Assembly (NCBI GenBank): GCA_001769655.1
Contig: MEPC01000042.1
Coordinates: 93,125 to 157,124 of the forward strand
Source of the DNA: Bacteroidetes bacterium RIFCSPLOWO2_12_FULL_37_12
Lineage (GTDB): Bacteria > Bacteroidota > Bacteroidia > 2-12-FULL-37-12
Reading direction: 5' to 3'
Length of the DNA: 64,000 bases
In this document: in pieces, positions 3,230-63,307 of the stretch
How the letters are laid out: the number at the start of each line of letters is the position of its first letter
Numbering within the stretch: position 1 is the first letter of the stretch
Program-made: the position numbers and the translations under genes
Notes under the pieces: model-generated
What the model was told of the DNA's origin: nothing
Database searches by the model: none
What the model saw: only the letters and a program-made list of their open reading frames with translations

Positions 3230-3299
3230 ATCGTCAAAAAATATAAAATCAAATATCTAATATCCAAACGTGAACGAGTCACAACCAAACAAGAAAAAA

Positions 3300-3395
3300 A
3301 TAAATAACATATAACATATAACACAAAATGAATAATAAAAAGTGAGGGGAAACCTTTAACATTATTCATTTTTTGTTATATGTTATATGTTTTTA
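3300..3395. repeat. Intergenic palindromic element, copy A: 31-bp inverted arms AACATATAACATATAACAcAAAATGAATAAT with a 24-nt loop.
   Basis: Arms at 3306-3336 and 3361-3391 are reverse complements with one mismatch. Related copies lie at 4775-4868 and 55890-56045. Confidence 0.6.
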
Positions 3396-3454
3396 ATAAT
3401 AATTTGAAACAATAATATTTTGCCATAATTGGTTGAAATATTTTTGATAAGATG

Positions 3455-4741: not shown

Positions 4742-4774
4742 GGTTATACTCAAAGTAATCAGGTTTAAAAAAAC

Positions 4775-4868
4775 AATAAATAACACATAACAAAAAATAA
4801 TTAATGTCAAAGGCGGTGAGTACTTAATAATTATTCATTTCTTGTTTTATGTTATATGTTATTTATTT
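4775..4868. repeat. Intergenic palindromic element, copy B (same family as 3300-3395)
   Basis: AATAAATAACAcATAACAAAAAATAAT ... TTATTCATTTCTTGTTTTATGTTATATGTTATTTATT: imperfect inverted arms that share the TGTTATATGTTAT core with copy A. Confidence 0.5.
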
Positions 4869-5686: not shown

Positions 5687-5699
5687 TGAATTTTAAAAA

Positions 5700-7980: not shown

Positions 7981-8092
7981 TGTGGTAATAAAGTAGTAAT
8001 ACAGTTGTAATACGATTGTAATACCATTGTTTTACCACTGTATTACCATTGTATTACTATTGTATTCACATTGTATTACTTTTGCATAACTA
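7981..8092. repeat. Array of about 10 units of GTAATAC/GTATTAC heptamers at 11-bp spacing. The orientation flips mid-array.
   Basis: GTAATAA agta GTAATAC agtt GTAATAC gatt GTAATAC catt GTTTTAC cact GTATTAC catt GTATTAC tatt GTATTCA catt GTATTAC tttt GCATAAC. The last units contain the TACTTTTG -7 box, 18 nt upstream of the lysC ATG at 8103. Confidence 0.7.
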
Positions 8093-9377: not shown

Positions 9378-9484
9378 GGTATAGGGATATAGGGATATAG
9401 GGTATAAAGGTATAAAGGTATAAAGGTATAAAGGTATAAAGGTATAGGACGCTCTTTTATACCCTATACCCCTATACCCTTTTA
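9371..9484. terminator. Bidirectional hairpin terminator built from (GGTATAAA)5 and GGTATAGGG tandem units, lying exactly between convergent stop codons
   Basis: ggtatagggatatagggatataggg(tataaagg)5tatagg-acgctctt-ttataccctatacccctataccc. The arms are reverse-complementary. The lysC stop is at 9375-9377 and the GNAT stop at 9482-9484. Confidence 0.55.
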
Positions 9485-9928
9485 ACTTTCAACTTCAAAC
9501 ATAATATAATGGGAACATTCCATTCCTGTTTTTTCATAAACCTTCTGCGCCTTAATGTTATTTTTCTCTACATATAACCGGATGCCACATACATTCTTTT
9601 CTTTTTTTGCCAACCGTTTTACTTCCCTGTATAATTTCCGGTAGATGCCCTTTTTACGAAATTCCGGCAATACATAAACACTTTGTATCCACCAAAAAGT
9701 ACTATTTCTCCAGTCAGACCATTCGTTTGTAATCATTAAACTTCCGGCGACAGTGCCATTTATTTCAGCTATCAGATAAAATCCTTTTTCAGGAAATTTC
9801 AATACGGCGCTGACTCCTTTCTGCAAAATAATTTTATTTAAACGCTTTCCTTCGGTTTCATAAGCCATGCGCAGATTATTTTCTACGAGTGACACACTAT
9901 CTTTAATTTGAGCTTTTCGTATGGTCAT
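9482..9928 (-). CDS. GNAT-family N-acetyltransferase
   Basis: 148 aa with an acetyl-CoA-binding-like VLPEFRKKGIYRKL motif. Confidence 0.65.
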   Translation of the reverse strand: MTIRKAQIKDSVSLVENNLRMAYETEGKRLNKIILQKGVSAVLKFPEKGFYLIAEINGTVAGSLMITNEWSDWRNSTFWWIQSVYVLPEFRKKGIYRKLYREVKRLAKKEKNVCGIRLYVEKNNIKAQKVYEKTGMECSHYIMFEVES

Positions 9929-19118: not shown

Positions 19119-19124
19119 TAATTA

Positions 19125-19190
19125 GAAATTAGGCATTAGTCATTGGTCATTAGAAATTACAACCAATGACTAATGACTAATGACCAATTT
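19125..19190. terminator. Hairpin built from CATTAGT/CATTGGT heptamer repeats, downstream of the AsmA-family gene
   Basis: aggcattagtcattggtcatta-gaaattacaa-ccaatgactaatgactaatgacca, followed by attttg. Confidence 0.45.
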
Positions 19191-30184: not shown

Positions 30185-30613
30185 ATGTTTTCCTTAGACC
30201 GTAATAAATTCCTGAAATTCAGTGGCACGTTGATGTCACTGCCTCTGTTGGGGCCTCTTGCAACATTTTTATCCGGTTGCGCGGGTATCAACTACATTCA
30301 GGGTGTTGATTTTAAAAATAAAACCGGAATCACACTAAATGAATTTAAAATTCAGAGTTTTGTGGTGCTGGAAAACGCACATTTCAGAAAACCCGTTTTG
30401 ATTTATAAAAAAAGTGACGCAGAATTTACAAGTGTTTCTTTACGATGCACTCATAAGGGATGCGAGTTAGATCCTTCAGGGAATAAATTGGTTTGTCCCT
30501 GTCATGGTAGTGAATTTTCTTTTGAAGGAAAGGTTTTGAATCCACCTGCAAAAGATGATTTACAAAAATTTCAAACCAGTTTCGATTCGGAATATGTGTA
30601 TGTGCATTATTAA
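30185..30613 (+). CDS. Rieske [2Fe-2S] domain lipoprotein
   Basis: Rieske boxes CTHKGC and CPCHGS, with the lipobox LSGCAG. Confidence 0.7.
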   Translation: MFSLDRNKFLKFSGTLMSLPLLGPLATFLSGCAGINYIQGVDFKNKTGITLNEFKIQSFVVLENAHFRKPVLIYKKSDAEFTSVSLRCTHKGCELDPSGNKLVCPCHGSEFSFEGKVLNPPAKDDLQKFQTSFDSEYVYVHY

Positions 30614-30692
30614 TACAATGGTAATACAATGATAAACAACCGTATTACAACTGCATTACAACCGTATTACAACTGTTTTACAACGTAATAAT
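30611..30692. repeat. Second 11-bp-phased GTAATAC/GTATTAC heptamer array (8 units), running from the Rieske stop codon to 7 nt before the next ATG
   Basis: TAATAC aatg GTAATAC aatg ATAAACA acc GTATTAC aact GCATTAC aacc GTATTAC aact GTTTTAC aac GTAATAA. Same family as 7981-8092. Confidence 0.7.
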
Positions 30693-36780: not shown

Positions 36781-36822
36781 ACCTCCCCCAGCCCCTCTCC
36801 AAAAAAATGGAGAGGGGTGAAC
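36781..36822. repeat. GC hairpin element CCCCAGCCCCTCTCC-A7T-GGAGAGGGG, copy 1
   Basis: A 9-bp perfect stem with an A-rich loop. A near-identical copy lies at 37141-37180. Confidence 0.6.
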
Positions 36823-36870
36823 GAACGCCTGGATTTACATCACATTAATCTGTAAATCATAATTTTCATG

Positions 36871-36878
36871 TACATTTG
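36871..36878 (+). promoter_or_regulatory. -7 box TACATTTG within the shared AATTTTCATGTA(A/C)(G/A)TTTG motif
   Basis: The same extended motif is found at 37221-37238 and 58001-58016. Confidence 0.4.
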
Positions 36879-36882
36879 AAGA

Positions 36883-37116
36883 ATGAAACTCCCGTCATTA
36901 TTCCCACTTCCCAAAAACAAGAAATTTGATTATCAGCCCAGATACTTTCAGGAAGAAAAAGATTCTATGACAGAGGAAAAACAAACTATGAGTGGACTTT
37001 TCAGGAAAAGAAGACACCTTTTCAATTTCCGAAAAGAAAAAATCAAAACCTCAGCTATACGAACACTAATTTTTCTGATTTTGCTCATAGGATTGTTTTT
37101 TTACCTGCTGAAATGA
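36883..37116 (+). CDS. Small basic membrane protein. The true start is likely the internal Met at 36967 or 36988.
   Basis: The C-terminus TSAIRTLIFLILLIGLFFYLLK is a predicted TM helix. The ORF is flanked by two copies of the GC hairpin element, and the promoter box sits so close that the first ATG falls at or before the transcription start. Confidence 0.3.
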   Translation: MKLPSLFPLPKNKKFDYQPRYFQEEKDSMTEEKQTMSGLFRKRRHLFNFRKEKIKTSAIRTLIFLILLIGLFFYLLK

Positions 37117-37140
37117 AATTTTTTATTATTAAATCCTACC

Positions 37141-37180
37141 TCACCCCAGCCCCTCTCCAAAAAAAGGAGAGGGGCGAAAA
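37141..37180. repeat. GC hairpin element copy 2, CCCCAGCCCCTCTCC-A7-GGAGAGGGG, followed by an A/T run. Probably the terminator of the small ORF.
   Basis: 37150-37158 pairs with 37166-37174, and cgaaaaatttgttgaatttttt follows. Confidence 0.55.
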
Positions 37181-37230
37181 ATTTGTTGAATTTTTTATAC
37201 AGTTTATGTGAAATTCAAAAAATTTTCATG

Positions 37231-37238
37231 TAAGTTTG
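37231..37238 (+). promoter_or_regulatory. -7 box TAAGTTTG (aspC promoter), part of the conserved AATTTTCATGTAAGTTTGCGTA motif
   Basis: Exact TAnnTTTG match about 23 nt upstream of the TTG at 37261. Confidence 0.45.
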
Positions 37239-37260
37239 CGTATCCAATTAATCCTATTCC

Positions 37261-38479
37261 ATTGAAAACACTCGCACACCCACAAACGCTATCGGACCGG
37301 ATTGAAAACCTTACAGAGTCACAGACGCTTGCCATGTCAAAAAAAGCGCGTGAACTGATTGCAAAAGGAGTTGATGTCATTAATTTAAGTTTGGGGGAGC
37401 CCAATTTTCCTACTCCCGAACCCATTGTAAAAGCCGCGATGGATGCCTTGCAAGCCCGCAAATACACCTATTATACACCCGTTAGCGGATACCTCGATTT
37501 GAGAGAAGCAATTTGTGAAAAATTCAAACGTGATAATGAACTTTCGTTTACGCCGGAACAAATTATTGTTTCTACCGGAGTGAAACAATCAGTAGCAAAC
37601 GTAATTTTAAGCGTGATTAATCCTGGTGATGAAGTGCTGATTCCTTCACCTTACTGGGTGAGCTATAATACGCTCATACAATTAGCAGAAGGGGTTTGTA
37701 AAACGATACCTTCTTCCGTGGATACTCATTTTAAAATAGATCCGCAACAAATTAAAGATGCTATTACACCCAGGACACGCATGCTCATTTTTTCATCTCC
37801 CTGCAATCCATCGGGCACTGTTTTAAGCGAGAAAGAATTAGCCGCCTGGGCTGAGGTTTTAAAAGAACATGAAAACATTGTAATTGTTTCAGATGAAATT
37901 TATGAATATATTAATTTTACCGGCAAACATCATAGTATAGGAAGTTTTCAAGAGTTGCGTGACCGGGTGGTGATTCTGAATGGTCTCTCAAAAAGTTATG
38001 CCATGACGGGATGGAGGTTGGGATACATGGCGGCGCCGTTATGGATTGCGAAAGCGTGTGAGAAAGTGCAGGGGCAGGTGACATCCGCTACATGCTCTAT
38101 TACCCAGCGTGCCGCTATAGTGGCACTGAAATCAAAATTAAGTGAAACCGATGATATGCTGAAGGCATATTTAAGAAGGCGGGATCTCATGGCAGGATTA
38201 TTAAAAAAAATTCCCGGATTAAAATTTGACATTCCACAAGGAGCGTTTTATATTTTTACGGATGTGAGCAGTTACTTTGGAACACATTGGAATGGAAAGA
38301 AAATTTTATCGGCTGAAGACATGAGTTTTTACCTGCTCGAAAAAGCGCATGTGGCATTAGTACCCGGCGAAGCATTCGGGGATCCCAACAGTATCCGGTT
38401 TGTATATGCCGCTGAGGACGAGAAAATCTGCAAAGCAGTGGATCGGATTGAGAAAGCGTTGGGGGAATTGAGGAGATGA
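37261..38479 (+). CDS. aspC: Aspartate/aromatic aminotransferase (class I PLP-dependent)
   Basis: Has LSDRIENLTESQTLAMSKKARELIAKGVDVINLSLGEPNF, NPSGTV and the PLP-lysine motif LSKSYAMTGWRLGY. The track ORF starts at a GTG at 37208, upstream of the promoter box, so I place the start at the TTG at 37261. Confidence 0.8.
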
Positions 38480-38495
38480 TTATCAAGTTTTTTTG

Positions 38496-38849
38496 TTATT
38501 TTGTTTTCAATTTCAAAAAATCTCCGTCCACAATAAATAATTTTACCCCATTAATTGAACGTGTACGGTGCGAACTTAATTCATCCGACACCTGATACGA
38601 CATTCCTTTCATTAATTTAAATACGCTACCGTCAGCAAGTTCTGTGTCCATTTCTCCTTCGATGCAATAAATGATGTGCCCTTTTTCGCACCAATGGTCT
38701 GCCTTGTAATTTTGGGAATATTCAACCATTCTTATTCTCAGTCCTTCGAACTGAAGGGTTTTCCAATAGGCAACTCCGGTTTCTCCTTTGTGTTCAGTGG
38801 TGGGAATTTTGTCCCAATCTGTGAGCTGAAAAGGTATGTTTTGGATCAT
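38496..38849 (-). CDS. Cupin-fold protein
   Basis: 117 aa with an HWCEKGHIIYCIEGEM...G..F metal-binding-like cupin pattern. Confidence 0.45.
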   Translation of the reverse strand: MIQNIPFQLTDWDKIPTTEHKGETGVAYWKTLQFEGLRIRMVEYSQNYKADHWCEKGHIIYCIEGEMDTELADGSVFKLMKGMSYQVSDELSSHRTRSINGVKLFIVDGDFLKLKTK

Positions 38850-38927
38850 GTGGAATGAGGTGTTTAAGGATTCTGATTAACGTTTCTCTTTTGTATTTTG
38901 TGAAACGATGGTTGAGTATCAGTGTCA

Positions 38928-39458
38928 CTATTTATGAATCACCACCTCGGAAGTTCGCACACGGTTGCTGATGTGCTTAGCCAGATCCTGAATTTCCACT
39001 TCAAAAAGAATGGTGTCATTTACGCTTAGGCGGGTATCATTGGCAAAAATGTCAAACACATCTATAAAACCTTCCACTTGCCTTTTTACTCCGGGTTTTG
39101 AAATACCCTCGGGTAATCGGAACTCGTATGGCTCTGCAATAGAGTTGGTGTCGGGAAAGGATCCCGTGTCAATTTTCATTTCAATAAAATTTCCTTTTAC
39201 CTTTCTGAATTTAGTCAGAAAAATATCAGCGTCACCGATTTGGTCGGTTGGATACCCTAAGTCACCATCTCCATCGGTAAAGGATAATGTAACTTTTACC
39301 ACAGATTCAATTCCCTGATTATTCCTAAGCACTTCAATCTTTTCAAACTTCAAAGCGGGAATCACAGAGAAATCGGGCGTTTCGATGCAGGAAGTCGTAA
39401 CTATAAAAATTGTCAGGGAGAGTAGCCACAAATGACCACGGAAATAAAAGGTTTTCAT
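38928..39458 (-). CDS. Hypothetical lipoprotein
   Basis: Signal plus lipobox (IVTTSC) and a DGDGD motif. No family assignment. Confidence 0.4.
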   Translation of the reverse strand: MKTFYFRGHLWLLSLTIFIVTTSCIETPDFSVIPALKFEKIEVLRNNQGIESVVKVTLSFTDGDGDLGYPTDQIGDADIFLTKFRKVKGNFIEMKIDTGSFPDTNSIAEPYEFRLPEGISKPGVKRQVEGFIDVFDIFANDTRLSVNDTILFEVEIQDLAKHISNRVRTSEVVIHK

Positions 39459-39525
39459 GTCTGACAGGGTTGATTGTTTTACAAATTTACGTGAAAATTT
39501 TGTACTTTTGTAAATAAATATAATA

Positions 39526-40017
39526 ATGCGTCCGATTGCAACTTCTAAAAAAAATAAAAAAAGTGTATATGTTGAAACATCCGTAATCAGTTATCTTGTG
39601 GATGAAAGAATAAAAATCAGATCCTTTATTGAAATAACTACACGTTGGTGGAATACCCAGCGCAAATACTATATGACATTTATTTCTCCTGAGGTTATTG
39701 CCGAACTCCAAAAAGGAAATTACCCGAATAAAACAAAGGCAATAGAACATGCTTTGACTATTCAATTAGTTGAACGAAAAAAGGAAATTATTGATATTGC
39801 CTCTATTTATATGAAAAATTTCCTTATGCCAAAAGAATTAATTGGCGATGCAATGCACCTTGCTTATGCTTCCTATTTTAAAATTGATTTTTTATTAACT
39901 TGGAACTGCACTCACTTAGCAAACGCCAATAAAAAAGAACATATCCGTATATTAAATTCAAGATTAAATTTATTTGTCCCGGAAATCATTACCCCTATGG
40001 AATTATTTATTGATTAA
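39526..40017 (+). CDS. PIN-domain protein (VapC-like)
   Basis: The N-terminal VYVETSVISYLVDE and C-terminal DAMHLAYASYFKIDFLLTWNCTHL match the PIN acidic-residue pattern. Confidence 0.45.
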   Translation: MRPIATSKKNKKSVYVETSVISYLVDERIKIRSFIEITTRWWNTQRKYYMTFISPEVIAELQKGNYPNKTKAIEHALTIQLVERKKEIIDIASIYMKNFLMPKELIGDAMHLAYASYFKIDFLLTWNCTHLANANKKEHIRILNSRLNLFVPEIITPMELFID

Positions 40018-40035
40018 ACTTAAATATCTTTATAC

Positions 40036-40195
40036 AATGGAAACAACAATTTTATTAAAAGAAAAGTGGAGGGTTCAAAAAGAATTAGCTGAAAGTGCTG
40101 GTTACAACCTTACAAAATATACTGTTTTAGTAGATAGTATTGTAAAGTATGTAAGACAAAAGTATAAAAAGAAAAACAAAACAGGATTTCAATAA
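40036..40195 (+). CDS. Small ORF (53 aa) immediately downstream of the PIN gene. Possibly a cognate partner.
   Basis: METTILLKEKWRVQKELAESAGYNLTKYTVLVDSIVKYVRQKYKKKNKTGFQ, located 18 nt after the PIN stop. Confidence 0.25.
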
Positions 40196-40335
40196 ACTTC
40201 CTCGTAATACCGTTCAGTTTTCATACCATATACCTTATACCTTCCATCAATGACCGCTTTTAAACAACAACTTGAAAAAGAAAAAGCAGAAAAAGTTGCA
40301 AAAGAAGTCAAACAGCGCAGGATAACCTTGAAGGT

Positions 40336-41373
40336 TTGGATTATTTTAACAACCAGATGATGCACCATCCATTCAATCCCGAAAAATTTTTTAAAAATCT
40401 CCCTTCCACCCATTCCGGCGATTTCGAAAAAAATGCCCTCGCCCTGTTTGAATTTCAATTTGAACATAACAAAGTTTACAGGGAATATTCACAACGAATT
40501 GGAAGGCCACCCGAACAGGTAGATTCATTAATGAAAATCCCTTTTCTGCCAGTTCGTTTTTTTAAAACGCACCCGGTTTTCTGTGGTGACGTACCCTTTA
40601 CAAACTATTTTCTCAGTTCCGGAACAACCGGCACTCAACCTTCAAAGCATTACATCAAAGAGATTTCATCTTATTTAACGAACTGCGTGCGCTGTTACAA
40701 CTATTCCTGGGGCGCATTAGATAATTATAGTATTCTCGCTTTAATTCCATTATTAAAAAATAGAGAAACATCATCCTTAGTCCACATGGTAGAACATTTT
40801 ATTCAACTATCCAACGATAGTGTTTCCGGTTTTTATTATGAGAATGAAGAATGTCTTGCTGACTTATTATCACATCCCACAGGAAAATTCCCTGCTAATA
40901 AAAGAATAATTCTGCTCGGTCTTAGCTACGCTTTGTATGATTTTTTTTATAAGCACCCCATACATTTTCCGGAATTGATTCTTATGGAAACCGGGGGTAT
41001 GAAAGGGAGAAAAAAAGAAATGACACGGATGGAGTTGCATGAATTTTTAACAAATCAAACGGGTGTGCAAAAAGTATATTCTGAATATGGCATGACTGAA
41101 CTTATGTCACAGTCCTATATAGTGCCCCCAAGCTTTTCTTTCTCTCCCCCACCCTGGATGAAAATTCTTATTCGCGATATCCATGACCCCTTCCATTTTC
41201 TATTGGAAGGCAAAAGAGGCGCAGTAAATGTAATTGACCTTGCAAACATACATACCTGTGCTTTTCTCGAATTGGACGATTTAGGGATTATAGACCCGGA
41301 AGGTAACTTTCAGATTCTGGGCAGGATGGACGAATCTGACTGGCGAGGTTGTAATTTGATGATTTTTTCTTAA
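40336..41373 (+). CDS. LuxE-like acyl-protein synthetase/adenylating enzyme
   Basis: Contains FLSSGTTGTQPSKHY and METGGMKGRKKEMTRMELHEF, resembling the LuxE acyl-protein synthetase family. Confidence 0.5.
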   Translation: MDYFNNQMMHHPFNPEKFFKNLPSTHSGDFEKNALALFEFQFEHNKVYREYSQRIGRPPEQVDSLMKIPFLPVRFFKTHPVFCGDVPFTNYFLSSGTTGTQPSKHYIKEISSYLTNCVRCYNYSWGALDNYSILALIPLLKNRETSSLVHMVEHFIQLSNDSVSGFYYENEECLADLLSHPTGKFPANKRIILLGLSYALYDFFYKHPIHFPELILMETGGMKGRKKEMTRMELHEFLTNQTGVQKVYSEYGMTELMSQSYIVPPSFSFSPPPWMKILIRDIHDPFHFLLEGKRGAVNVIDLANIHTCAFLELDDLGIIDPEGNFQILGRMDESDWRGCNLMIFS

Positions 41374-41392
41374 TTTTACCGATTCTTTACCC

Positions 41393-42856
41393 ATGCCATC
41401 AATCCTACCCGAATTTGATTGTGATATTTTTATCAGTTATCAGGCAGATGATTCCGTTTCTGCCGACTGGGTAAAAGTATTTGCTCAGCAATTGGAAATG
41501 GAATTAAAAACATTGATTCCTAATTCCGTTCACATTGAATATTGGAAAAGTCAGGCAAACATTTCCCAATTACCTAAATCACTTTTATTTATTCCAGTCA
41601 TTATTAAATCCTATTGCCAGGAAAATTCACCCTATTGGAATGATGAATTTATGCGCTTTCATGACAGCGCCTGCCATGATAACCTGGGACTAGTCGTTAA
41701 AGTAAATGCGTATTGTTCTTACAATAGAATATTACCGGCAAAAATCAGCTTTCCTGATAAATCACAAATGCTTCTCCTCGAAAAAAGCACAGGGCATCCT
41801 TTCAAGACCTTTGACTTTGTTTATGAAGGACATGACCGCCTTGACCATCCGCTGAAGCCAGAAGATAATTTCAACGACCTTGGTTTACATCAAAAAATGG
41901 CATTCAGAAGTCAATTAAATAAACTGGCATTAGTTATAAGCGACATATTAAAGGCAGTAAAAAACCCAAGTTTAGCTGAAAAAGAAAATTATGGAGTGAT
42001 TTACATTCCTTGGACCTCTGCCGACCTTAAACTAAAACGGGAAGAACTCATACTCATATTGCAAAATTCAGGGATGCTGGTAATTCCTCAATATGACTGC
42101 CCCATTGACGAAGAGAAATTTAAAAATATAGTGAATGAATGTGTTTCCCAGACAGATGCTTCCATACATTTGGTAAGTGACGAGTATGGTAGAAGCTTTG
42201 AAAACGATGAAAAAAAATCTTTTGCCATGTATCAGTTGGAACAGGCAAAATCCGTTTTAGCAAATCATATTAAACCATTTCGTATTTTTATAAACTATTT
42301 TAAAACAGGGGGAGTGGTTTCTCCTTTACAGGAGTCATTTATTCAGCAAATCAGAAACAGCTTGTCTGACGGGATTATGTTTATGAATGCCACTCATCTT
42401 ATGTATCTTGCAGAAGATTTACGGCAAAATATTCTTGATAGTAAACTGACCGCCAGGAAAGAGATTGAATCGGACCTTCTTTTAGTGTATAACTACTTGG
42501 ATATTGACCGTGCCGAAGAAATCAAAAAAGAAATTACACAAGATATGTCTTGCAGGTTTTCAAGCTATATGATGAATGGAAACAAAGACGGAATCAATGA
42601 CATTCAGAAAAATGTACAGGGAAGCCGCCTTACGATTGTTTTCAGCAAAGAAACGTTCAACTGGGCTAAGCCATTTGTTCAGTATCTTTGGAAACTTACC
42701 GGAGGAGTTCACTCGAAAAACCAAATTGCATGGATTGGTGAAATTGATGGGGAAAAGGAACCTGAAACCCTTCGTCTTCCCGGTATTATACATAAATTTG
42801 CAAAGAAAGAGAATATTGTTTCAGAAATAAAAAAGATTTTTAACCCATTTTCATAA
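41393..42856 (+). CDS. TIR-like domain protein, 487 aa. The N-terminal TIR is followed by two further flavodoxin/TIR-like segments.
   Basis: Carries the TIR beta-A motif FDCDIFISYQADD, beta-D plus SxW..E (LLFIPVIIKSYCQENSPYWNDEF) with a conserved Glu, and later GVIYIPWTSADL and LTIVFSKETFNWAKPF. It starts 19 nt after the LuxE-like gene and ends 2 nt before the STAND gene. Confidence 0.5.
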   Translation: MPSILPEFDCDIFISYQADDSVSADWVKVFAQQLEMELKTLIPNSVHIEYWKSQANISQLPKSLLFIPVIIKSYCQENSPYWNDEFMRFHDSACHDNLGLVVKVNAYCSYNRILPAKISFPDKSQMLLLEKSTGHPFKTFDFVYEGHDRLDHPLKPEDNFNDLGLHQKMAFRSQLNKLALVISDILKAVKNPSLAEKENYGVIYIPWTSADLKLKREELILILQNSGMLVIPQYDCPIDEEKFKNIVNECVSQTDASIHLVSDEYGRSFENDEKKSFAMYQLEQAKSVLANHIKPFRIFINYFKTGGVVSPLQESFIQQIRNSLSDGIMFMNATHLMYLAEDLRQNILDSKLTARKEIESDLLLVYNYLDIDRAEEIKKEITQDMSCRFSSYMMNGNKDGINDIQKNVQGSRLTIVFSKETFNWAKPFVQYLWKLTGGVHSKNQIAWIGEIDGEKEPETLRLPGIIHKFAKKENIVSEIKKIFNPFS

Positions 42857-42858
42857 CA

Positions 42859-45800
42859 GTGACACCCTCCGTTTCCACTCATTGCCCCTACATTGGTTTA
42901 CGTCCATACCGTGAAGAAGAATCCCTTTATTTTAAAGGACGCGATTCCCACATCCTGGAAATCCTGGAAATGATTAAGCAGGATAATTTCATCATGATGA
43001 CAGGGGCATCGGGCGACGGGAAAACATCGTTGGTAAAAGCAGGAGTCATTCCTGCATTGAAAGCCGGATTAATCAATACGCAATTCAATAATTGGATCGT
43101 TGCAAGTTTCCGTCCCGAAAGAAATCCGCTGGGTAACTTTGCCAAAAGTTTATCCAACGCTCTCGGATATCAGACCCCTGAGAGCGTGGAATCATTAATG
43201 GGGTATGGTTTTTCCTCCCTTTGCAACCTCTACAAAAATTCGCCTTTCTATGTAGATGAAAAAAGTGATTCATTTCTTTCACTAACTCCCGAAGAAAAAA
43301 AGAAAAAACAACATCAAGCCGCCAATCTGTTGATTTTTACCGACCAGTTTGAAGAGTTTTTTACAAACGTGGAAAATTATACCGAAGGAATTCCATCCGT
43401 AAATTCGCAAACCGTTATAAATCTATTGCTTGAAACCAAAAAACTTGCAAAGGACGAAAAACTTCCCATTTATATTCTGTGTACCATGCGATCCGACTAT
43501 ATGGGATCTTGTGCCGCTTTTCCCGGATTGCCCGAATTAATTCATCGTAATCATTACTTCGTTCCCCGTCTTAAAAGAAACGAATTGATGAAAGCCATTA
43601 AGGAGCCCTGCCTGCTTACCGGTTATTCCATTACCGATCGCTTAGTGGAGCGATTGATTTTTGATTTGAAAGAATGTATAGAAATTCTTCCCGTTTTGCA
43701 ACATGTCTTGTATCAAATCTGGCATATTGCTTCCTTAGAAAACGTACCCATGGACCTGATTCATTATGCCATGGCAGGTGGAATGCCCAAAGTGGAGCTC
43801 CCTCAGGAAGATCAAGTCACTTTTAAAAATTGGTTCGCAAAACTTCCGGAATACAAACGTCTGCTGTTTGAGAATCCATCCATTGGAAATGTGCTGGATG
43901 CCCATGCTTCAGAATTATTTGAAATCGCACATAAAAGAACTTCTACTCAAGCGCCGGTGGGCGAACAACTTTCCAAACATATTATCCGGGTTGCTTTTAC
44001 TTGTCTTACCCGCATGGATAATGGAAAAGCTGTGAGAAACCGTGTGACGATCAAAAATATTGCTGAAATGGTGGATTTGCCGGGGGTTGACCACAGAACC
44101 ATTGGCAGAGTTCTGAATAACTTCAGAGAACAAGGCAACACATTTATTCAGCCATTTATTTATGATTTGGATCAAACCATCGTTGAAGTGTCACTCAAGG
44201 AGGAATTAGTAAAACCGGATATCATACTCGACATCACGCATGAAGCATTAATCAGAAATTGGAGTTTGCTGCGAGATTGGGTGGACAAGGAACAGGAAAG
44301 CGTAAAAATATATATAGACCTTGAAAACCAGCTTGACCGTTGGGTAAAGAACAGTAAAAAGAAAGAATACTTGCTTGGGGAAGGAACATTGGAATATTTT
44401 TATCAATGGTTTCAAAACCAAAACCCTAATGCCGGTTGGATAAAAAGATACATGCTTGAAAGCAGAATAAAACTTTCAAAAGAAAAAGAAAAGTCCGGAG
44501 AAAACACCGAACTCACATCCACTAACGGAAATCATTCAACTCCCGATCTCACTAATACGCTTAACAACAAGGAAGAGCAGGATAGAATGAAATCAAAACT
44601 TGCCCGCTTGCGGTTACAAAACATCCGTGAGTTCCTGAGCCATAGCCGTAAAAATATTTCTTTCAAAAAAAATTTTACCAGGAGCACCATTCTTCTCATT
44701 TCATTTTTGCTGGTACTGTCCATCATTGGATTTATCAATGCCAATAAAGAGAGAACCAATGCCATTGAATCAAATAAAGTTTCAAGATCGAATGAACTTT
44801 CTTACAGGTCTTTTCTTACTGTAAATAATGACCCTACCATGGCGTTCCGTCTGGCAGAAGCCGCATATAACGTATATCCCGGGACGTATGCAAAGCAAGC
44901 TGTCATGGAATCGTTTATGAATCCTCCTTTTTACAAATTAATTTCAGGCCATTCGCATTATGTCACTAGTGGAATGTTTTCTACTGACGGACGATATTTA
45001 GTAACCGCATCCAATGATAAAAGCGTACGCCTTTGGGATATTTTTGGCAAACCTCAGGCGGTTATGATGCATGATGATATTGTAAAATCAGTACAATTTT
45101 CTCCCGATAATAAAAAAGTGCTTTCTTGCTCAGCCGACCGTACCATACGTCTATGGGATTTAAAAGGAAATGAAGTTCAAAAACTGACTGCTCATAACGG
45201 AGTGATTAATTCTGCGCAGTTTTCACCCGCAGGCAATTTTATTATTTCTACTTCTGATGACAGTACTGCCATCATCTGGAATATTATTAAACCCTTACGG
45301 ATACTCAAAGGTCATAAAGGTCCCGTTTTATCTGCATCTTTTTCACCAAATGCCCGGCAAATTGTTACCACTTCTTCTGATAACAATCTTATGCTATGGA
45401 CTTTTGACGGAGTTCTTCTTAAAACCTTAGAAGGACATACTGCGCCGGTATTGGGTGCCACTTTTTCAAACGATGGGAAATATATTTTAAGTTATTCCGT
45501 TGATTTTACAGCTAAATTATGGGGCATGAAAGGAAATCTGGTGGCTGATTTGAAAGGACATACCGCACCCTTAACCGGTGCCATTTTTTCGCCGGATGGA
45601 AGCAAAATTTTTACTTATTCAGATGATTTTTCTGGGATTCTCTGGGATTTTTCGGACAAACCCGGCAATGTATATGTACAATTACTTAATTTTTTTCAGG
45701 GGCATAACGGGAAAATTGTTTCTGCTTCTTTTGCAACCGATGGTGAAACTATTGCCACTGCTTCAGAAGACAATACCTGCCGGATTTGGAGCCAGAACGG

Positions 45801-47025
45801 AAACACGCTACACATATTAAAAGCAAATGACTTGTTCATGCTGGCTTTATTTACTCCCAATAGCCAGCGGGTTCTAACTACACATAACAGCGGCGCAATT
45901 AGAATATGGGATTTAACTCAAAAAGAAACCCGTGTGCTACGTAACCATGTAGAATATGTGTGGGATGTCACTGTATCCCAAAGCGGTAAATACATCGTTA
46001 CCTCTTCGTGGGATAATAATGCATGTTTATGGAATAACGCTGGTGAACTTTTAAAAACACTGGTAGGACACACCGATAAAGTATATTACTCTCTGATAAC
46101 TCCCGATGAACAATTTATCATCACTACTTCTTATGATAAAACCATACGGTTATGGAAAATGGATGGGCAATGCCTTCAGACATTATCCGGTCATACCGGA
46201 AATATTTATCAACCCCATATAACAGATGATGGAAAATTTCTCATCACTCCCAGTGCGGATAAAACAGCCATTGTCTGGCAGTTTATCAAAGAAGGTGACA
46301 CTAAATTATTGAAAAAATATGCCACACTCAGAGGGCACATTGGTAGAATTCGGGTTGCCCGTTTTTCTAATGACGGCCGTTTCATACTTACTGCCAGCGG
46401 CGATAACACTGCCCGCTTATGGGACCGTGACGGAAATCTGGTGCGAAAACTAACTGGTCACACTGCTGAGGTTTATACCTGTTGTTTTTCAAAGGATGGC
46501 GCCTATATTATTACGGGTTCATCGGATGGCACTGCACGAATCTATGATGGAATGGGAAATTTTCTGCAAATTCTTGCCGGTCATTCTGAAGGAATAAGCG
46601 ATGTGGTATTTATGCAGAATCAAAAATACATTGTGACTGTTTCTTCAGACCGCACAGGAATTATCTGGAACTTGCTCGGTAAAGATATTGCTCATTTGAC
46701 AGGTCATACAGATTTAATCAATACGGTGGAAGTGTCACCCGATGGGAAATACTTATTGACTTCCTCTGATGATCTTACAGCCCGTGTCTGGGATTTGGAT
46801 GGAAATGAAATCAATGTATTGAAAGGGCACAACGGACAGGTGCAGGAAGCCCATTTTTTCCCCGATGGAAAATCTGTCATCACTTGCTCAAAGGATGGCA
46901 CAGCACGCATCTGGCCTGTTTTTATAGAGGATGTATTCCGGAAAATCAATGATGAAAAATTCAGAGGTGATGTATGGAGTCCTAATCGTGCAGAAAGGAA
47001 GATATTTGGAATGGGGGTGAATTGA
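42859..47025 (+). CDS. STAND-class P-loop NTPase (NACHT/nSTAND-like) with one predicted internal TM helix and at least 14 C-terminal WD40 repeats
   Basis: N-terminal CPYIGLRPYREEESLYFKGRD, Walker A GASGDGKTS and Walker B IFTDQFEEFF. A TM segment STILLISFLLVLSIIGFI lies near aa 620. Repeats of the form GH..V....FSPDG..I.T.S.D.T.R.WD follow. Confidence 0.8.
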   Translation: MTPSVSTHCPYIGLRPYREEESLYFKGRDSHILEILEMIKQDNFIMMTGASGDGKTSLVKAGVIPALKAGLINTQFNNWIVASFRPERNPLGNFAKSLSNALGYQTPESVESLMGYGFSSLCNLYKNSPFYVDEKSDSFLSLTPEEKKKKQHQAANLLIFTDQFEEFFTNVENYTEGIPSVNSQTVINLLLETKKLAKDEKLPIYILCTMRSDYMGSCAAFPGLPELIHRNHYFVPRLKRNELMKAIKEPCLLTGYSITDRLVERLIFDLKECIEILPVLQHVLYQIWHIASLENVPMDLIHYAMAGGMPKVELPQEDQVTFKNWFAKLPEYKRLLFENPSIGNVLDAHASELFEIAHKRTSTQAPVGEQLSKHIIRVAFTCLTRMDNGKAVRNRVTIKNIAEMVDLPGVDHRTIGRVLNNFREQGNTFIQPFIYDLDQTIVEVSLKEELVKPDIILDITHEALIRNWSLLRDWVDKEQESVKIYIDLENQLDRWVKNSKKKEYLLGEGTLEYFYQWFQNQNPNAGWIKRYMLESRIKLSKEKEKSGENTELTSTNGNHSTPDLTNTLNNKEEQDRMKSKLARLRLQNIREFLSHSRKNISFKKNFTRSTILLISFLLVLSIIGFINANKERTNAIESNKVSRSNELSYRSFLTVNNDPTMAFRLAEAAYNVYPGTYAKQAVMESFMNPPFYKLISGHSHYVTSGMFSTDGRYLVTASNDKSVRLWDIFGKPQAVMMHDDIVKSVQFSPDNKKVLSCSADRTIRLWDLKGNEVQKLTAHNGVINSAQFSPAGNFIISTSDDSTAIIWNIIKPLRILKGHKGPVLSASFSPNARQIVTTSSDNNLMLWTFDGVLLKTLEGHTAPVLGATFSNDGKYILSYSVDFTAKLWGMKGNLVADLKGHTAPLTGAIFSPDGSKIFTYSDDFSGILWDFSDKPGNVYVQLLNFFQGHNGKIVSASFATDGETIATASEDNTCRIWSQNGNTLHILKANDLFMLALFTPNSQRVLTTHNSGAIRIWDLTQKETRVLRNHVEYVWDVTVSQSGKYIVTSSWDNNACLWNNAGELLKTLVGHTDKVYYSLITPDEQFIITTSYDKTIRLWKMDGQCLQTLSGHTGNIYQPHITDDGKFLITPSADKTAIVWQFIKEGDTKLLKKYATLRGHIGRIRVARFSNDGRFILTASGDNTARLWDRDGNLVRKLTGHTAEVYTCCFSKDGAYIITGSSDGTARIYDGMGNFLQILAGHSEGISDVVFMQNQKYIVTVSSDRTGIIWNLLGKDIAHLTGHTDLINTVEVSPDGKYLLTSSDDLTARVWDLDGNEINVLKGHNGQVQEAHFFPDGKSVITCSKDGTARIWPVFIEDVFRKINDEKFRGDVWSPNRAERKIFGMGVN

Positions 47026-47222
47026 TAATTAATAATTATACTGTAAACGGAACAAATTTCAGCAAATGTCTATATTGGCATATAGTTCTATTGTTTTATT
47101 GTTTCATTGTTAATTGACTCCATGATTTCAGCACAACAATGAAACTATGTAGCAATGGAACAATGAACAGAGTTACAAGAAAATTTATACCGATTGCAGT
47201 ATAATAATTAATAATTCCTATA
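47026..47222. repeat. A ~190-bp imperfect palindrome with 19-bp terminal inverted repeats (ATAATTAATAATTATACTG / CAGTATAATAATTAATAAT) and nested inner inverted repeats
   Basis: Fills the whole gap between the WD40 gene and serS. The inner arms are ttctattgttttattgtttcattgtt and aacaatgaaactatg..caatggaacaatgaa. Confidence 0.55.
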
Positions 47223-47225
47223 CCC

Positions 47226-48497
47226 ATGCTCGAAATTTCAACACTCCGCCTACACTCCGAAGAAATCACCCAGAAACTTCTAATAAAAAACTTTCCGGCA
47301 GAAAATATAATTAAAGAAGTGCTTAGCGCCGATCAACAAAAACGGGAACTCCAGACCGAATTGGATACTATCAATGCCTCCGGAAACCGTTCCGCCAAAG
47401 AAATAGGGCGCCTTATGACTACCGGACAAAATGCAGAAGCAGAAAAACTTAAAATTGAAGCCACCGGGTTCCGCGAAAAAGCAAAAGAATTAGAACAGAA
47501 AATCAGAGAGGCAGAAACAGCACTTGAAGAACTACTTGTCCGGATTCCTAATACTCCCTCCGAAAAAGTTCCGGCAGGCAAAACCGCCGCTGATAACAAA
47601 CCTGTCTATGAAAATGATTGCAAGCCAACGGCAACCGGCACCTTGTTTCCGCATTGGGACATTATTAAAAAATACGATATCATTGATTTTGAGACCGGCA
47701 TTAAAATTTCCGGTCCCGGATTTCCCGTTTACAAGGGAAAAGGCGCTCGTTTATTACGGGCTTTGATTAATTATTGCCTTGATGAGGCATGTAAAGCCGG
47801 CTACAAAGAAATGATTCCTCCCGTATTTGTGAACTCAGCAAGTGCGTATGCCACAGGACAGCTTCCCGATAAAGACGGAATGATGTATGAAATGAAAGAA
47901 GATAAATTATATGCTATTCCCACCGCTGAAGTGCCACTAACCAACATTTACCGTGATGTCATTCTGAAAGAAGAAGACCTACCGGTAAAAATTACGGGCT
48001 ACACTCCTTGTTTTCGCAGGGAAGCCGGTTCCTGGGGTGCAGACGTGAGAGGATTAAACCGTCTTCATCAATTTGATAAAGTTGAGATAGTGCAAATTTG
48101 CAAACCGGAAAATTCCTACCTGACACTCGAAGAAATGCGAAACTTTGTGCAGAATCTGATTATTTCCCTCGGACTTCATTCCCGTACCTTGCTTCTTTGT
48201 GGCGGTGACATGAGTTTCACTTCCGCAATGACTTACGACCTGGAGGTTTTTGCCGCCGGACAAAAAAAATGGTTGGAAGTGAGTTCGGTCTCAAACTTTG
48301 AAACCTTTCAGGCAAACCGTTTGCGACTCCGTTTCAAAGATGCCAATAAAAAAACACAGCTTGCACACACCTTAAACGGCAGTGCGTTAGGATTAGCGCG
48401 GATACTTGCGGCGATTATTGAAAATTATCAGACACCGGATGGCATAATTGTACCGGAAGTGCTGAGAGCATATACGGGGTTCGAGAAAATTTTTTAG
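47226..48497 (+). CDS. serS: Serine--tRNA ligase
   Basis: N-terminal coiled-coil arm followed by class II aaRS motifs (FRREAGSWGADVRGLNRLHQFDKVE, GSALGLARILAAIIE). Confidence 0.9.
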   Translation: MLEISTLRLHSEEITQKLLIKNFPAENIIKEVLSADQQKRELQTELDTINASGNRSAKEIGRLMTTGQNAEAEKLKIEATGFREKAKELEQKIREAETALEELLVRIPNTPSEKVPAGKTAADNKPVYENDCKPTATGTLFPHWDIIKKYDIIDFETGIKISGPGFPVYKGKGARLLRALINYCLDEACKAGYKEMIPPVFVNSASAYATGQLPDKDGMMYEMKEDKLYAIPTAEVPLTNIYRDVILKEEDLPVKITGYTPCFRREAGSWGADVRGLNRLHQFDKVEIVQICKPENSYLTLEEMRNFVQNLIISLGLHSRTLLLCGGDMSFTSAMTYDLEVFAAGQKKWLEVSSVSNFETFQANRLRLRFKDANKKTQLAHTLNGSALGLARILAAIIENYQTPDGIIVPEVLRAYTGFEKIF

Positions 48498-53491: not shown

Positions 53492-53578
53492 TTTCAACTT
53501 TAACTCAAAAACATATTAGTATTTTTTCGTAAATATATTATAGCTACTCCGGTGTGTATTATTTCTCGCAAATATTAT

Positions 53579-53680
53579 GTCACGCAAAGACGCAAAGTAC
53601 GCAGAGTATTAAGTACGCAGAGTAAAAAAATCATAAATGATTTTTTCTTTGCCTCTTTGCCTCTTTGCGGCTTTGCGTGA
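53579..53680. repeat. Complex hairpin built from (CGCAAAG)2 and (CTTTGCCT)2 tandem arms around a central perfect palindrome AAAAAAATCAT-AA-ATGATTTTTTT
   Basis: The outer 18-bp arms tcacgcaaagacgcaaag and ctttgcggctttgcgtga are reverse-complementary, and the + strand is followed by gaacttttttt. Confidence 0.5.
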
Positions 53681-53775
53681 GAACTTTTTTTATGCTGAAT
53701 AGTTACAATATTTTCAAATTTCTTCTTTTTCCTTTCTTCTTTCTTCTCTCTTCTTTCTCCTTTTTCCTTTCTCCT

Positions 53776-53912
53776 TTTTCCTTTTTCCTTTTTCCTTTTT
53801 CCTTTTTCCTTTTTCCTTTTTCCTTTTTCCTTTTTCCTTTTTCCTTTTTCCTTTTTCCTTTTTCCTTTTTCCTTTTTCCTTTTTCCTTTTTCCTTTTTCC
53901 TTTTTCCTTTTT
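53776..53912. repeat. Heptanucleotide microsatellite (CCTTTTT)n, about 19 perfect copies, flanked by degenerate CT-rich repeats spanning 53700-53960
   Basis: The tandem is directly visible. It produces the spurious 'KGKRKKE' and 'FLFPFSF' ORFs on the two strands. It lies between the 3' end of gene 53948-55606 and the promoter region of the porin-like gene. Confidence 0.9.
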
Positions 53913-53947
53913 CCCTTTCTCTCCTTCCCCCTTTTCCCATTCTCCCC

Positions 53948-55606
53948 CTACTCCACATTCACCTCAATATTCTCAATCTCCCAATTCGCTTTCAGTGGCA
54001 TAATATTTTTATAATAAAATATTTTTTCAGGTAAAATGTTTTTGAAAATATCACCCCTGTCCCACCTTTCGTTATTGTTCCTGTCTTCCAGCAAACGAAA
54101 TACGTACTTACCGGGTTTTAGCCATTCAAAACGGAATGTGTGATTATTTTTTAATTGACGCAGGACTCTCCCTTTATCGTCGAGCAGGTCCAGTGTGAAA
54201 TTTTTCCAGATGGTATTTACAGTGCCACTTAATGCTCCGTAACCGGCATCGTTATCTTTGTAATATATAAAAGGTTCTTTCCGGTTTTTCAAACCGTAAA
54301 CATCCGAAAACATACTATCCGGAATACTAATCCGCAGATTTTTAGTAAAGGGTATATTCCTCTTAATGCTTAATTCGTTTCCGTATTTATTCCAGGCATA
54401 CTCATCTTCTTTATTTAACAGAATAGTTTTTACAGAATCCACCATAAATTCCAACAATGGAATTGTTTTTCCAATTACCGGTACCCGAAATAAAAATTTT
54501 ATCTGGTTGGAATTCATGATTAGAGTGCCATTGGAAGGAAAAACCGAAATAACAAAAGGGACAGAGTCCTTTTTAGCATCCGGTTTTACGCCTATGAATA
54601 ATGTGTCCTGCATTTTGTTGTATGAGGAATCAATGGCTGTAACGTGTAATGAAACACTATCCTTCTCAATAGTTGGAAATGCCACAAGATTTTTTCCGTC
54701 ATACAGCGGGATAAAAGGAACAGGAGATGAAGCGCTGTCATTCAACTGAAAAAGAGAAATTGAATCAACTCCCTCACTGAACTGCAAGGTGATTTTATTT
54801 TTTTCATCCGCTTGCGATTTCAAAATATAGGGAGGAAGGTGGTCTTCTTTGTATAAATGAAGATTCAATTTTATAGTATCCTGTCTAATGGAAATCAACG
54901 AATCGGTGAATGCCACCCGTTCAGAACTAATATCACAGGTATAATTTTTATTTTTATCATCAAACGCTATTACATTAAATTGCCCTTGTGGCAGGTTTTT
55001 TAACTGAAATTCTCCGGTTTTAGTACTTCGGGTAAGAAAAAGAGGAGTTTTTTTAACGAAATGAACAGTGTCACTGTCCTTCGCAGGAATGAGTCCTACT
55101 GTAATTCCATGCACCGGATTTCCGCTAAGAACCTCTGAAATCATTCCCTTTACAATGCCGGTATCAATAATTTCCCCGGTGCTGAAAGTGAGGGTTAACT
55201 CATCGGGAGGATTTTTTTCGGTATTGTCCACAATCGAATTTTCAAATTGAAAACGGTACGTAGTGTTTGAAAGTAGTGTATCCTTCAGCGTAATAAAAAA
55301 TTTTTTCTTTTTAACTTTGGTTTCCACCGGATATTTTAAAGGAGGGGATACTATCCAATTCGTGCTTAAATTATTGGTGTTCACATATTCATCAAATTCA
55401 AGTTCGAGAGTGTTATCTCTATAATTTCGCTGTTCATCGGTTGGCTTTGAGTGAACTAACTTAGGTGGAGTTTCATCTTTGGGACCTCCGGTCGGTGGTA
55501 CGATATTGGCGCAGGATGTGAGAAGGAATAAAAGGAGATAGATTAGGCGATTGGCTGAATGGTTAAATGGTTGAATGGTTATATGGTTAAATGGAAAAAT
55601 CATCAC
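53948..55606 (-). CDS. Hypothetical lipoprotein, probably Ig-like/beta-sandwich-rich
   Basis: 552 aa with the lipobox LLTSCAN. No catalytic motifs recognised. Confidence 0.4.
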   Translation of the reverse strand: MMIFPFNHITIQPFNHSANRLIYLLLFLLTSCANIVPPTGGPKDETPPKLVHSKPTDEQRNYRDNTLELEFDEYVNTNNLSTNWIVSPPLKYPVETKVKKKKFFITLKDTLLSNTTYRFQFENSIVDNTEKNPPDELTLTFSTGEIIDTGIVKGMISEVLSGNPVHGITVGLIPAKDSDTVHFVKKTPLFLTRSTKTGEFQLKNLPQGQFNVIAFDDKNKNYTCDISSERVAFTDSLISIRQDTIKLNLHLYKEDHLPPYILKSQADEKNKITLQFSEGVDSISLFQLNDSASSPVPFIPLYDGKNLVAFPTIEKDSVSLHVTAIDSSYNKMQDTLFIGVKPDAKKDSVPFVISVFPSNGTLIMNSNQIKFLFRVPVIGKTIPLLEFMVDSVKTILLNKEDEYAWNKYGNELSIKRNIPFTKNLRISIPDSMFSDVYGLKNRKEPFIYYKDNDAGYGALSGTVNTIWKNFTLDLLDDKGRVLRQLKNNHTFRFEWLKPGKYVFRLLEDRNNNERWDRGDIFKNILPEKIFYYKNIMPLKANWEIENIEVNVE

Positions 55607-63236: not shown

Positions 63237-63307
63237 GATTTACGATTTTTGATTTACGATTTACGATTTTCTATTTTCTATTTTCTATCTTCTATTTTCT
63301 ATCTTTC
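63237..63307. repeat. Tandem heptamers (GATTTAC)3-4 then (TATTTTC/TATCTTC)6 then C9, abutting the LpxL-like start codon
   Basis: gatttacgatttttgatttacgatttacgattttctattttctattttctatcttctattttctatctttccccccccc. It begins 4 nt from the ATG at 63232. Confidence 0.8.

Follow-up and report, generated by a model that had tools for sequence, protein, structure and literature searches.

A probable split NLR-like gene pair in a mosaic interval between an aminotransferase gene and serS of a Bacteroidota genome

The 64-kb stretch analysed here (hereafter the window) belongs to contig MEPC01000042.1 of Bacteroidetes bacterium RIFCSPLOWO2_12_FULL_37_12. Its interval between a class I/II aminotransferase gene and serS contains two small minus-strand genes, five plus-strand genes and a long palindrome (Table 1), as mapped from the list of open reading frames (ORFs), their translations, and family scans against Pfam, NCBIfam, PADLOC and PHROGs. 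An earlier note on this DNA had taken all 8.7 kb for a single accessory or defence island, ending in the palindrome. We came to favour, at a little better than an even chance, a different reading with two joint parts: the interval is a patchwork, in which resident genes lie beside small accessory modules, rather than a single insertion, and its functional unit is not the 8.7 kb but a two-gene NLR-like cassette, made up of a gene for a protein with a TIR-like head (gene A) and a gene for an nSTAND1-WD40 protein (gene B).

The two small minus-strand genes, for a cupin and a lipoprotein-like product, were found where the earlier note had placed them. Its picture of the five following genes as a plus-strand series with short gaps was right about the strand and about the spacers of 19 and 2 nt on either side of gene A, but it overlooked 164 nt in front of the LuxE-like gene; the spacer after the PIN-like gene is indeed short, although it measures 19 nt and not 18. 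From the PIN-like gene to gene B the gaps are thus, in order, 19, 164, 19 and 2 nt, and since 164 nt precede the LuxE-like gene, the five genes form at least two transcription units.

Table 1. Features of the aminotransferase-serS interval and similar intergenic sites of the window (positions are those of the window).
Feature	Position	Strand	Evidence or remark
Class I/II aminotransferase	37208-38479	+	Left flank
DHCW-motif cupin, 117 amino acids	38496-38849	-	NCBIfam NF038084, E = 2.3e-51, 172 bits (cutoff 70)
Lipoprotein-like ORF, 176 amino acids	38928-39458	-	Hydrophobic N-terminus, then Cys (from the translation)
PIN-like protein, 163 amino acids	39526-40017	+	Pfam PIN, E = 1.5e-3, 19.6 bits, cutoff 23.6
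52-amino-acid ORF	40037-40195	+	19 nt past the PIN-like gene
LuxE/PaaK-family acyltransferase (LuxE-like), 337 amino acids	40360-41373	+	Pfam LuxE, E = 1.6e-8
Gene A, TIR-like, 487 amino acids	41393-42856	+	TIR-like head plus constant module
TIR-like head, residues 1-195 of gene A; proposed effector	41393-41977	+	Pfam TIR_2, E = 1.3e-3
Constant module, residues 196-487 of gene A (about 290 amino acids), DUF4062-like plus conserved C-terminal domain; proposed adaptor to the NTPase	41978-42856	+	Pfam DUF4062, E = 2.9e-4
Gene B, nSTAND1-WD40, 1388 amino acids	42859-47025	+	Pfam nSTAND1, WD40
nSTAND1 NTPase module	42859-44364	+	Pfam PF20703, E = 9.2e-65; C-terminal piece, residues 441-502
Predicted single transmembrane helix, residues about 608-630	44680-44748	+	Kyte-Doolittle 19-residue mean 2.47
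About 15 WD40 repeats, two beta-propellers; proposed sensor	44932-46920	+	Pfam WD40, E = 8.7e-135, 15 stretches
Palindrome	47026-47222		Occupies the gene B-serS spacer
serS	47226-48497	+	Right flank
Other intergenic hairpins with tandem-repeat arms (at least five)	3304-3391, 4776-4867, 7985-8080, 9371-9490, 19120-19190		Each with its own unit of 7-11 nt
Further intergenic sites with 7-11-nt tandem repeats	30611-30684, 63237-63307

The nucleoside triphosphatase (NTPase) module of gene B has an intact Walker A motif (GASGDGKT, residues 49-56). Its nSTAND1 profile starts at residue 10, which leaves no room at the N-terminus for a fused effector; the effector-like protein is encoded by the separate gene upstream. 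Between the NTPase and the WD40 repeats lies the predicted membrane helix, with a Lys/Arg-rich segment on its N-side, and an equivalent feature occurs at about 560-625 residues from the NTPase start in each of the eight further homologues that were long enough (nine of nine with gene B), among them two proteins in which module and NTPase are fused (P0339 and P0373) and a plasmid copy, all described below. If the helix truly spans the membrane, the NTPase would be cytoplasmic and the repeats would lie outside the cytoplasmic membrane. Neither the literature that defined nSTAND1 nor a full-text literature search yielded a membrane-spanning bacterial NLR-like WD40 arrangement of this kind, and PADLOC returned only a WD40-level match to its HEAT-ARM candidate model for gene B and nothing for gene A, on which NCBIfam and PHROGs were uninformative as well.

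Six contigs of the same population from other samples, among nine found, each carry the block at 99.8-100% identity. Contig L081 has 31 substitutions relative to the window, every one of them within 89 bp (46684-46772) in the last WD40 blades of gene B; in L081 the gene is called in two pieces at this place, and contigs L083 and L084 end there (46730-46733). Either the repeats led to a misassembly here or the sensor repeats of gene B vary between strains.

The head of gene A reaches 19.6 bits against TIR_2, where the cutoff is 28, and eight of its 14 relatives match the same family (best E = 1.5e-4). When 14 sequences were aligned, the motif D11-I-F-I-S-Y and residues S79, E85 and F89 were invariant and W82 nearly so. 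The resulting S..W..E pattern is that of TIR NADases, and by motif analogy E85 would be the catalytic residue. A profile search of the PDB with the head gave flax L6 TIR as its best match, which was not significant (E = 0.63). The AlphaFold model of the head has a flavodoxin-like fold (predicted local distance difference test score, pLDDT, 80.6), and the full-length model of gene A is poor past residue 195 (pLDDT 55).

Over residues 1-195 the head shares 30-36% identity with the N-terminal parts of about 80 proteins from Bacteroidota (P0002-P0082), most of which continue with a membrane helix, most of which carry TPR repeats, and several of which are annotated as 'TolB-like'. These TIR-transmembrane-TolB-like-TPR proteins, with the motif M.S..P.YEYDIFISYR, are the nearest relatives of the head and follow a similar logic, in that a cytoplasmic TIR-like domain is combined with repeats beyond a membrane helix. 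Unlike the pair in the window, however, they are single proteins with neither an NTPase nor a DUF4062-like module.

The remainder of gene A is the constant module, whose first 85 or so residues match DUF4062 (PF13271) at 20.1-21.4 bits, against a cutoff of 24.7 that is passed by the family members P0334, P0326 and P0324; a profile of the module searched against the PDB retrieved mostly TIR structures (best E = 0.007). An exhaustive search with residues 195-487 gave 91 representative homologues, in which the module takes three forms. It occurs as a stand-alone protein of about 290-300 amino acids, as the C-terminal part of proteins of 490-710 amino acids, most of them with the same TIR-like head and one with an extra adenylate/guanylate cyclase domain ahead of that head, and as the N-terminus of P0339 (1605 amino acids) and P0373 (1444 amino acids), where it is followed directly by nSTAND1 and WD40 repeats.

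DUF4062, since renamed NIR, is a TIR-like NADase that acts as the effector in Avs, Swarozyc, Evangelion, Vulcan and Vesta (2026 preprints, including 10.64898/2026.09.04.749371 and 10.64898/2026.05.01.722283), and it stands in front of NACHT-WD40 in human TEP1 (2026 preprints). An essential catalytic Glu lies about 80 residues into the domain (E97 in KpSwz, E108 in PsAvs2 and E1008 in TEP1; 10.64898/2026.09.04.749371, 10.64898/2026.05.01.722283). In gene A, positions 76 and 78 of the DUF4062 profile fall on M279 and Q281 in place of this Glu. Across the family the catalytic position carries Gln, which is the consensus, or some other residue that is not Glu, such as Ala in the plasmid homologue, and the signature of the wider module subfamily reads YLAE[TC]...IHL.G..YG...S...Q..LA. 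Since a Gln stands where the catalytic Glu would be expected, we read the module as a connector that is probably not catalytic, and the enzyme would more likely be the TIR-like head.

In every neighbourhood inspected, the next gene downstream of the module gene encodes an nSTAND1 NTPase. The two genes are separated by 20 nt in L173/L174 and by 8 nt in L175, they overlap by 4 nt in L178, where the NTPase is 42% identical to that of gene B, and in L176/L177 two NTPase genes follow. In L176 (6833-12816) the TIR-like/module gene is the one with the extra cyclase domain, and behind it stand two consecutive nSTAND1 genes of about 1340 amino acids each, whose products both have the membrane helix at the same position. 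A further pair lies on a 132-kb plasmid of Hymenobacter tibetensis (NZ_CP094670.1, L180) at 737-6651, where both genes are annotated as 'hypothetical protein' in RefSeq; its NTPase has the membrane helix and a C-terminal region that is not WD40. In all, the pair recurs in six other contexts. Beyond the pair itself, the contexts in L173-L178 and on the plasmid have nothing in common with the window, and the fused protein sits amid unrelated genes. No homologue of gene A was found in the phage collection. The conserved adjacency, taken with the fusions in P0339 and P0373, is the usual kind of argument for a joint function of the products of gene A and gene B.

What the sequences show, namely which domains are present, that the two genes stay adjacent, that module and NTPase are fused in some homologues and that the helix is conserved, points to a split NLR-like sensor and effector, which by analogy would probably be defensive through the breakdown of NAD+. 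Characterised STAND, TIR and NIR systems are the source from which we infer the trigger, the docking, the NADase activity and the defence role. In the sequence of events that they suggest, the WD40 propellers would bind a trigger, outside the cytoplasmic membrane if the helix really spans it, and the nSTAND1 NTPase would then oligomerise. The constant module of gene A, which in other genomes is fused to the N-terminus of the NTPase, would dock on it, and this docking would gather the TIR-like heads, so that NAD+ would be degraded or a signal made and the cell arrested.

A more specific version of this idea is that the pair represents an undescribed family of membrane-spanning NLR-like receptors, with an exterior WD40 or other sensor, a cytoplasmic nSTAND1, a catalytically dead DUF4062/NIR-like adaptor and a separate TIR-like effector. 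Such receptors would serve in immunity or surveillance, and would sense the envelope or the exterior rather than cytoplasmic phage proteins. We put this forward tentatively, as a possibility that we consider rather doubtful.

Several known systems resemble the cassette in part. Avs and other NLR-like STAND antiphage proteins with NIR (DUF4062) or TIR effectors, such as PsAvs2 (10.64898/2026.09.04.749371), have the same order of an effector-like domain, a STAND NTPase and C-terminal repeats, and the fused proteins P0339 and P0373 have exactly the Avs-like order. Unlike these proteins, the cassette of the window consists of two genes, its NTPase belongs to the nSTAND1 clade, a helix is predicted between NTPase and repeats, the essential Glu of DUF4062 is replaced by Gln, a TIR-like head is added and no PADLOC model matches. 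The human proteins TEP1, NWD1 and NWD2 (DUF4062-NACHT-WD40) are alike in placing a DUF4062-like domain ahead of a STAND NTPase and WD40 propellers, and the WD40 region of gene B also matches the TEP1 propeller models in Pfam. The homology shown is at the level of domains only. The NTPase in the window is nSTAND1 and not NACHT, the gene is split, a transmembrane helix is predicted and the catalytic Glu is missing.

A precedent for the NTPase comes from the nSTAND1 counter-invader systems (Kaur, Burroughs, Iyer and Aravind 2021, PMC8195603), where adaptor domains of the Death-like or EAD type couple the effector to the NTPase. These systems share the NTPase family PF20703 and have effectors such as TIR in their neighbourhood. 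In contrast, the NTPase of the window starts at residue 10 with neither a Death-like nor an EAD adaptor, and it is the partner protein that carries a DUF4062-like module.

We then considered the interval as a whole. The absence of an integrase or tRNA, which the earlier note had already remarked upon, was upheld: family scans found no integrase or recombinase among the nine ORFs of the interval, and ARAGORN found no tRNA in the 64-kb window. No direct repeat of at least 9 nt links 38440-38560 with 46990-47260. GC content and codon usage, which the earlier note had proposed to compare with the flanks, do not set the block apart, with the exception of one gene. For the LuxE-like gene, gene A and gene B, the GC content, the GC content at third codon positions (GC3) and the codon bias are all inside the window range for equally long genes, and the PIN-like gene is the sole compositional outlier of the block, with the lowest values among the 41 genes of the window (GC 0.305, GC3 0.256).

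Scans anchored on serS, covering 185,579 species genomes and the JGI metagenomes, gave relatives at no more than 62% identity, none of them with aspC, LuxE, TIR or STAND nearby. A SerS homologue search added one closer relative, from run SRR22387933, whose SerS is 87% identical and is encoded on a contig of 1.4 kb that reaches only 83 nt upstream of the gene; all other SerS relatives are at most 63% identical and lack synteny. The order LuxE-TIR-STAND is kept in this relative (L167), with identities of 62% for LuxE, 76% for TIR and 85% for the N-terminal part of STAND, on contigs too short to join these genes to aspC or serS. Since the three genes are kept at such identities where SerS itself is at 87%, the block is old and not a recent insertion. 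Another SerS homologue, P0084 (551 amino acids), was set aside as irrelevant, as it comes from a high-GC organism.

More than 8000 homologues of the LuxE-like gene, at 45-50% identity and under the name 'LuxE/PaaK family acyltransferase', are spread across Bacteroidota. In Labilibaculum, in Sulfidibacterium and in a Cyclobacteriaceae metagenome-assembled genome, the homologue stands alone amid unrelated housekeeping genes with neither TIR nor STAND nearby. It is a resident Bacteroidota gene, and the cassette sits directly behind it. Genes A and B are probably co-transcribed with it; the gap between LuxE and TIR is 19 nt, and a similar spacer of 20 nt is present in the relative L167.

This spacer (41374-41396, TTTTACCGATTCTTTACCC followed by ATGC) resembles the sequence in front of serS at 47184-47229 (TTTATACCGATT, 21 nt, CCTATACCC followed by ATGC), and TACCGATT is present just three times in the window, both strands counted. 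A duplication at the two junctions was considered and set aside, since many starts in this DNA have the context cccATG and the resemblance is absent in the relative.

The cupin also lies outside the cassette, and by its NCBIfam match it is a member of a curated conserved family. In L095, an unrelated contig from Bacteroidota, a copy that is 78% identical lies at 16955-17299, some 6 kb downstream from serS. The SerS of that contig is only 58% identical to that of the window, against 78% for its cupin, and the L095 cupin has therefore been either far better conserved than SerS or transferred.

The imperfect palindrome of about 190 bp that the earlier note had described next to serS was borne out. 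The segment 47026-47222, which ends 3 nt short of the serS start, folds with a minimum free energy of -52 kcal/mol, against -31.6 +/- 3.9 in dinucleotide shuffles (z = -5.2), and none of 200 shuffles was as good. An AT-rich outer stem (about 47028-47059 with 47181-47213) encloses an inner hairpin (47082-47164) whose arms consist of three to four tandem units of ATTGTTnn. Of the 19-bp terminal inverted repeats claimed for it, the inverted termini exist, but they are AT-rich and match at only about 17 of 20 positions. The proposed behaviour as a miniature inverted-repeat transposable element (MITE) found no support: the palindrome is present once in the 64-kb window and is absent from 2.4 Mb of other Bacteroidota loci, no target-site duplication marks its ends (the flanks, AATTGA and CCTATA, differ), and no Rfam family matches it or any other part of the window. 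The 83 nt upstream of serS in the relative with 87% SerS identity have no similarity to it.

That 83-nt stub begins with two tandem 9-mers (ATCCGTGTC ATCCGTGTT), which resemble one arm of a similar hairpin.

Tandem repeats of 7-11 nt are unusually common in the intergenic regions of the window, often as two inverted arrays that form a long hairpin just past the end of a gene (Table 1); the hairpins on either side of the gene at 3455-4810 have the unit ATAACAT in common. Folding of whole spacers gave z-scores of -10.5, -8.1, -7.8 and -4.5, where -7.8 belongs to the gene B-serS spacer. The palindrome is one instance of the short-tandem-repeat hairpins that are frequent between the genes of this genome, and not the border of an island. 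Most likely it serves as a terminator or insulator between gene B and serS, with the terminator role being a guess. It is comparable to ERIC, REP/BIME and Correia elements in size (about 100-200 bp), in being an imperfect palindrome and in its intergenic place by gene ends. Those elements, however, are multi-copy with a shared sequence, whereas here no second copy was found and each hairpin has its own 7-11-nt unit. A sigma-70 promoter and terminator scan of the region, with a promoter type that is wrong for Bacteroidota, gave no more sites than shuffled sequences.

How do these observations bear on the possible explanations? The view that the whole 8.7 kb came in by horizontal transfer as a single accessory or defence island, whose right border would be the MITE-like palindrome, can point to the closeness of the PIN-like pair and the TIR/STAND pair between two housekeeping genes, to a palindrome that begins right after the gene B stop codon and fills the space up to serS, to a same-population contig (L086) that breaks inside this palindrome, and to the copy of the gene pair on a plasmid elsewhere. 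We nevertheless consider it very unlikely, since the LuxE-like and cupin genes are of a conserved resident type, the integrase, tRNA and direct repeat are missing, the composition is native except for the PIN-like gene, the window holds no second copy of the palindrome, and a relative with SerS at no more than 87% identity still has LuxE-TIR-STAND. What stands of the original claim is the palindrome itself and the defence-like character of the block, with a TIR-like/STAND pair beside a PIN-like pair, and what is not supported is the single island bounded by a MITE-like palindrome. Unlikely too, if not to the same degree, is a reading of the palindrome as a distinct element, which would either be mobile, with other copies outside the window, or act as a cis-regulatory leader of serS. 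Its hold on the entire spacer upstream of serS, its far better folding than expected by chance and the resemblance of its outer arms to terminal inverted repeats would suit such an element; against it stand the dissimilar 83 nt in the relative, the lack of an Rfam match and of a target-site duplication, the failure to find a second copy in the 64 kb or the 2.4 Mb of other loci, and a core with the same repeat-armed build as unrelated hairpins of the window.

The main rival concerns the function of the pair, which might be a housekeeping and non-suicidal device for envelope signalling, in which the membrane-spanning STAND protein would sense a cue from the envelope or the exterior and relay it to heads of the TIR-like or cyclase type, for these to produce a second messenger or serve as scaffolds. 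Much of what we found would fit: the slow evolution (85% for the N-terminal part of STAND and 87% for SerS in the same relative), the native composition and housekeeping surroundings, the 19-nt gap, conserved in the relative, across which the pair is probably co-transcribed with a resident gene, the family member with an adenylate/guanylate cyclase head, the TIR-transmembrane-TolB-like-TPR membrane proteins as nearest relatives of the head, and the DUF4062-like domain without its catalytic Glu. Set against this are the definition of nSTAND1 in predicted counter-invader systems (PMC8195603), the experimentally defensive nature of DUF4062/NIR and TIR effectors on STAND proteins, the patchy distribution with a plasmid copy and variable C-terminal sensors, and the invariant Glu of the head, which fits an enzyme. 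On balance we judge this rival possible but rather improbable.

The reading that we prefer, of a split NLR-like cassette in a mosaic interval, has its own points against it. The TIR and DUF4062 matches of gene A itself are below the Pfam curated cutoffs, Foldseek places the head among flavodoxin-like folds, with TIRs only among weak and non-significant matches, and neither PADLOC nor PHROGs recognises the cassette. The register of the DUF4062 catalytic position comes from profile coordinates, motif register and the residue numbers in the papers, not from a structure, and for the modules that stand alone no effector is obvious. Unusually for immune genes, the cassette evolves at about the slow pace of SerS, sits amid housekeeping genes and has the PIN-like pair as the only defence genes beside it. 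As for the palindrome, no T-run follows the hairpin and a scan of 47026-47225 for consensus terminators finds none, where Bacteroidota terminators may differ from the consensus. The support for the function of the cassette is based on sequences and models.

Read as a genomic island, the interval would be either ordinary or wrong. Much current work is centred on STAND/NLR-like proteins that have TIR or DUF4062 (NIR) effectors, and it connects immunity in bacteria with TEP1 and the NWD proteins of humans; the cassette has three features that we did not find described in the literature searched. These are the division of the system between two genes, which other genomes have in fused form, the natural loss of the catalytic Glu from a DUF4062-like domain that seems to be a constant connector, and a conserved membrane helix that would place the sensor repeats outside the cytoplasm. 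If this topology is true, the pair would be a testable case of NLR-like receptor signalling across a membrane. The analysis also corrects the annotation of the Hymenobacter plasmid pair, listed as 'hypothetical protein' in RefSeq, and recovers a cassette that PADLOC misses.

Among the remaining genes of the interval, neither the lipoprotein-like ORF (in Pfam, NCBIfam, PADLOC and PHROGs) nor the 52-amino-acid ORF (in the family scans) has a family match; the latter is called as a gene in six of six contigs of the same population. From their sequences, the PIN-like protein is a possible toxin and the 52-amino-acid product its possible partner in a toxin-antitoxin-like pair. Such a pair would recall VapC-like type II toxin-antitoxin systems, but the PIN match is under the Pfam cutoff (Table 1) and the small ORF is here downstream and not upstream.

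Elsewhere in the window, the spacer at 36803-37207 (405 nt) separates the aminotransferase gene from a divergent gene of the glycosidase/beta-lactamase-like type and has strong predicted structure (z = -4.7). Near 37150-37174 it forms a perfect hairpin rich in GC (CCCCTCTCC-A7-GGAGAGGGG), and another GGAGAGGGG lies at about 36809. At 53725-53918 there are 27.7 tandem copies of the heptamer CTTTTTC with 95% identity, within a doubtful ORF of 127 amino acids (53575-53958, minus strand) whose GC and AT skews are strongly negative. Finally, arrays with a period of 120 nt and about 71% matches occur near the left end of the window, at 750-1071 (2.7 copies) and 2439-2841 (3.4 copies), and these probably correspond to 40-residue protein repeats.

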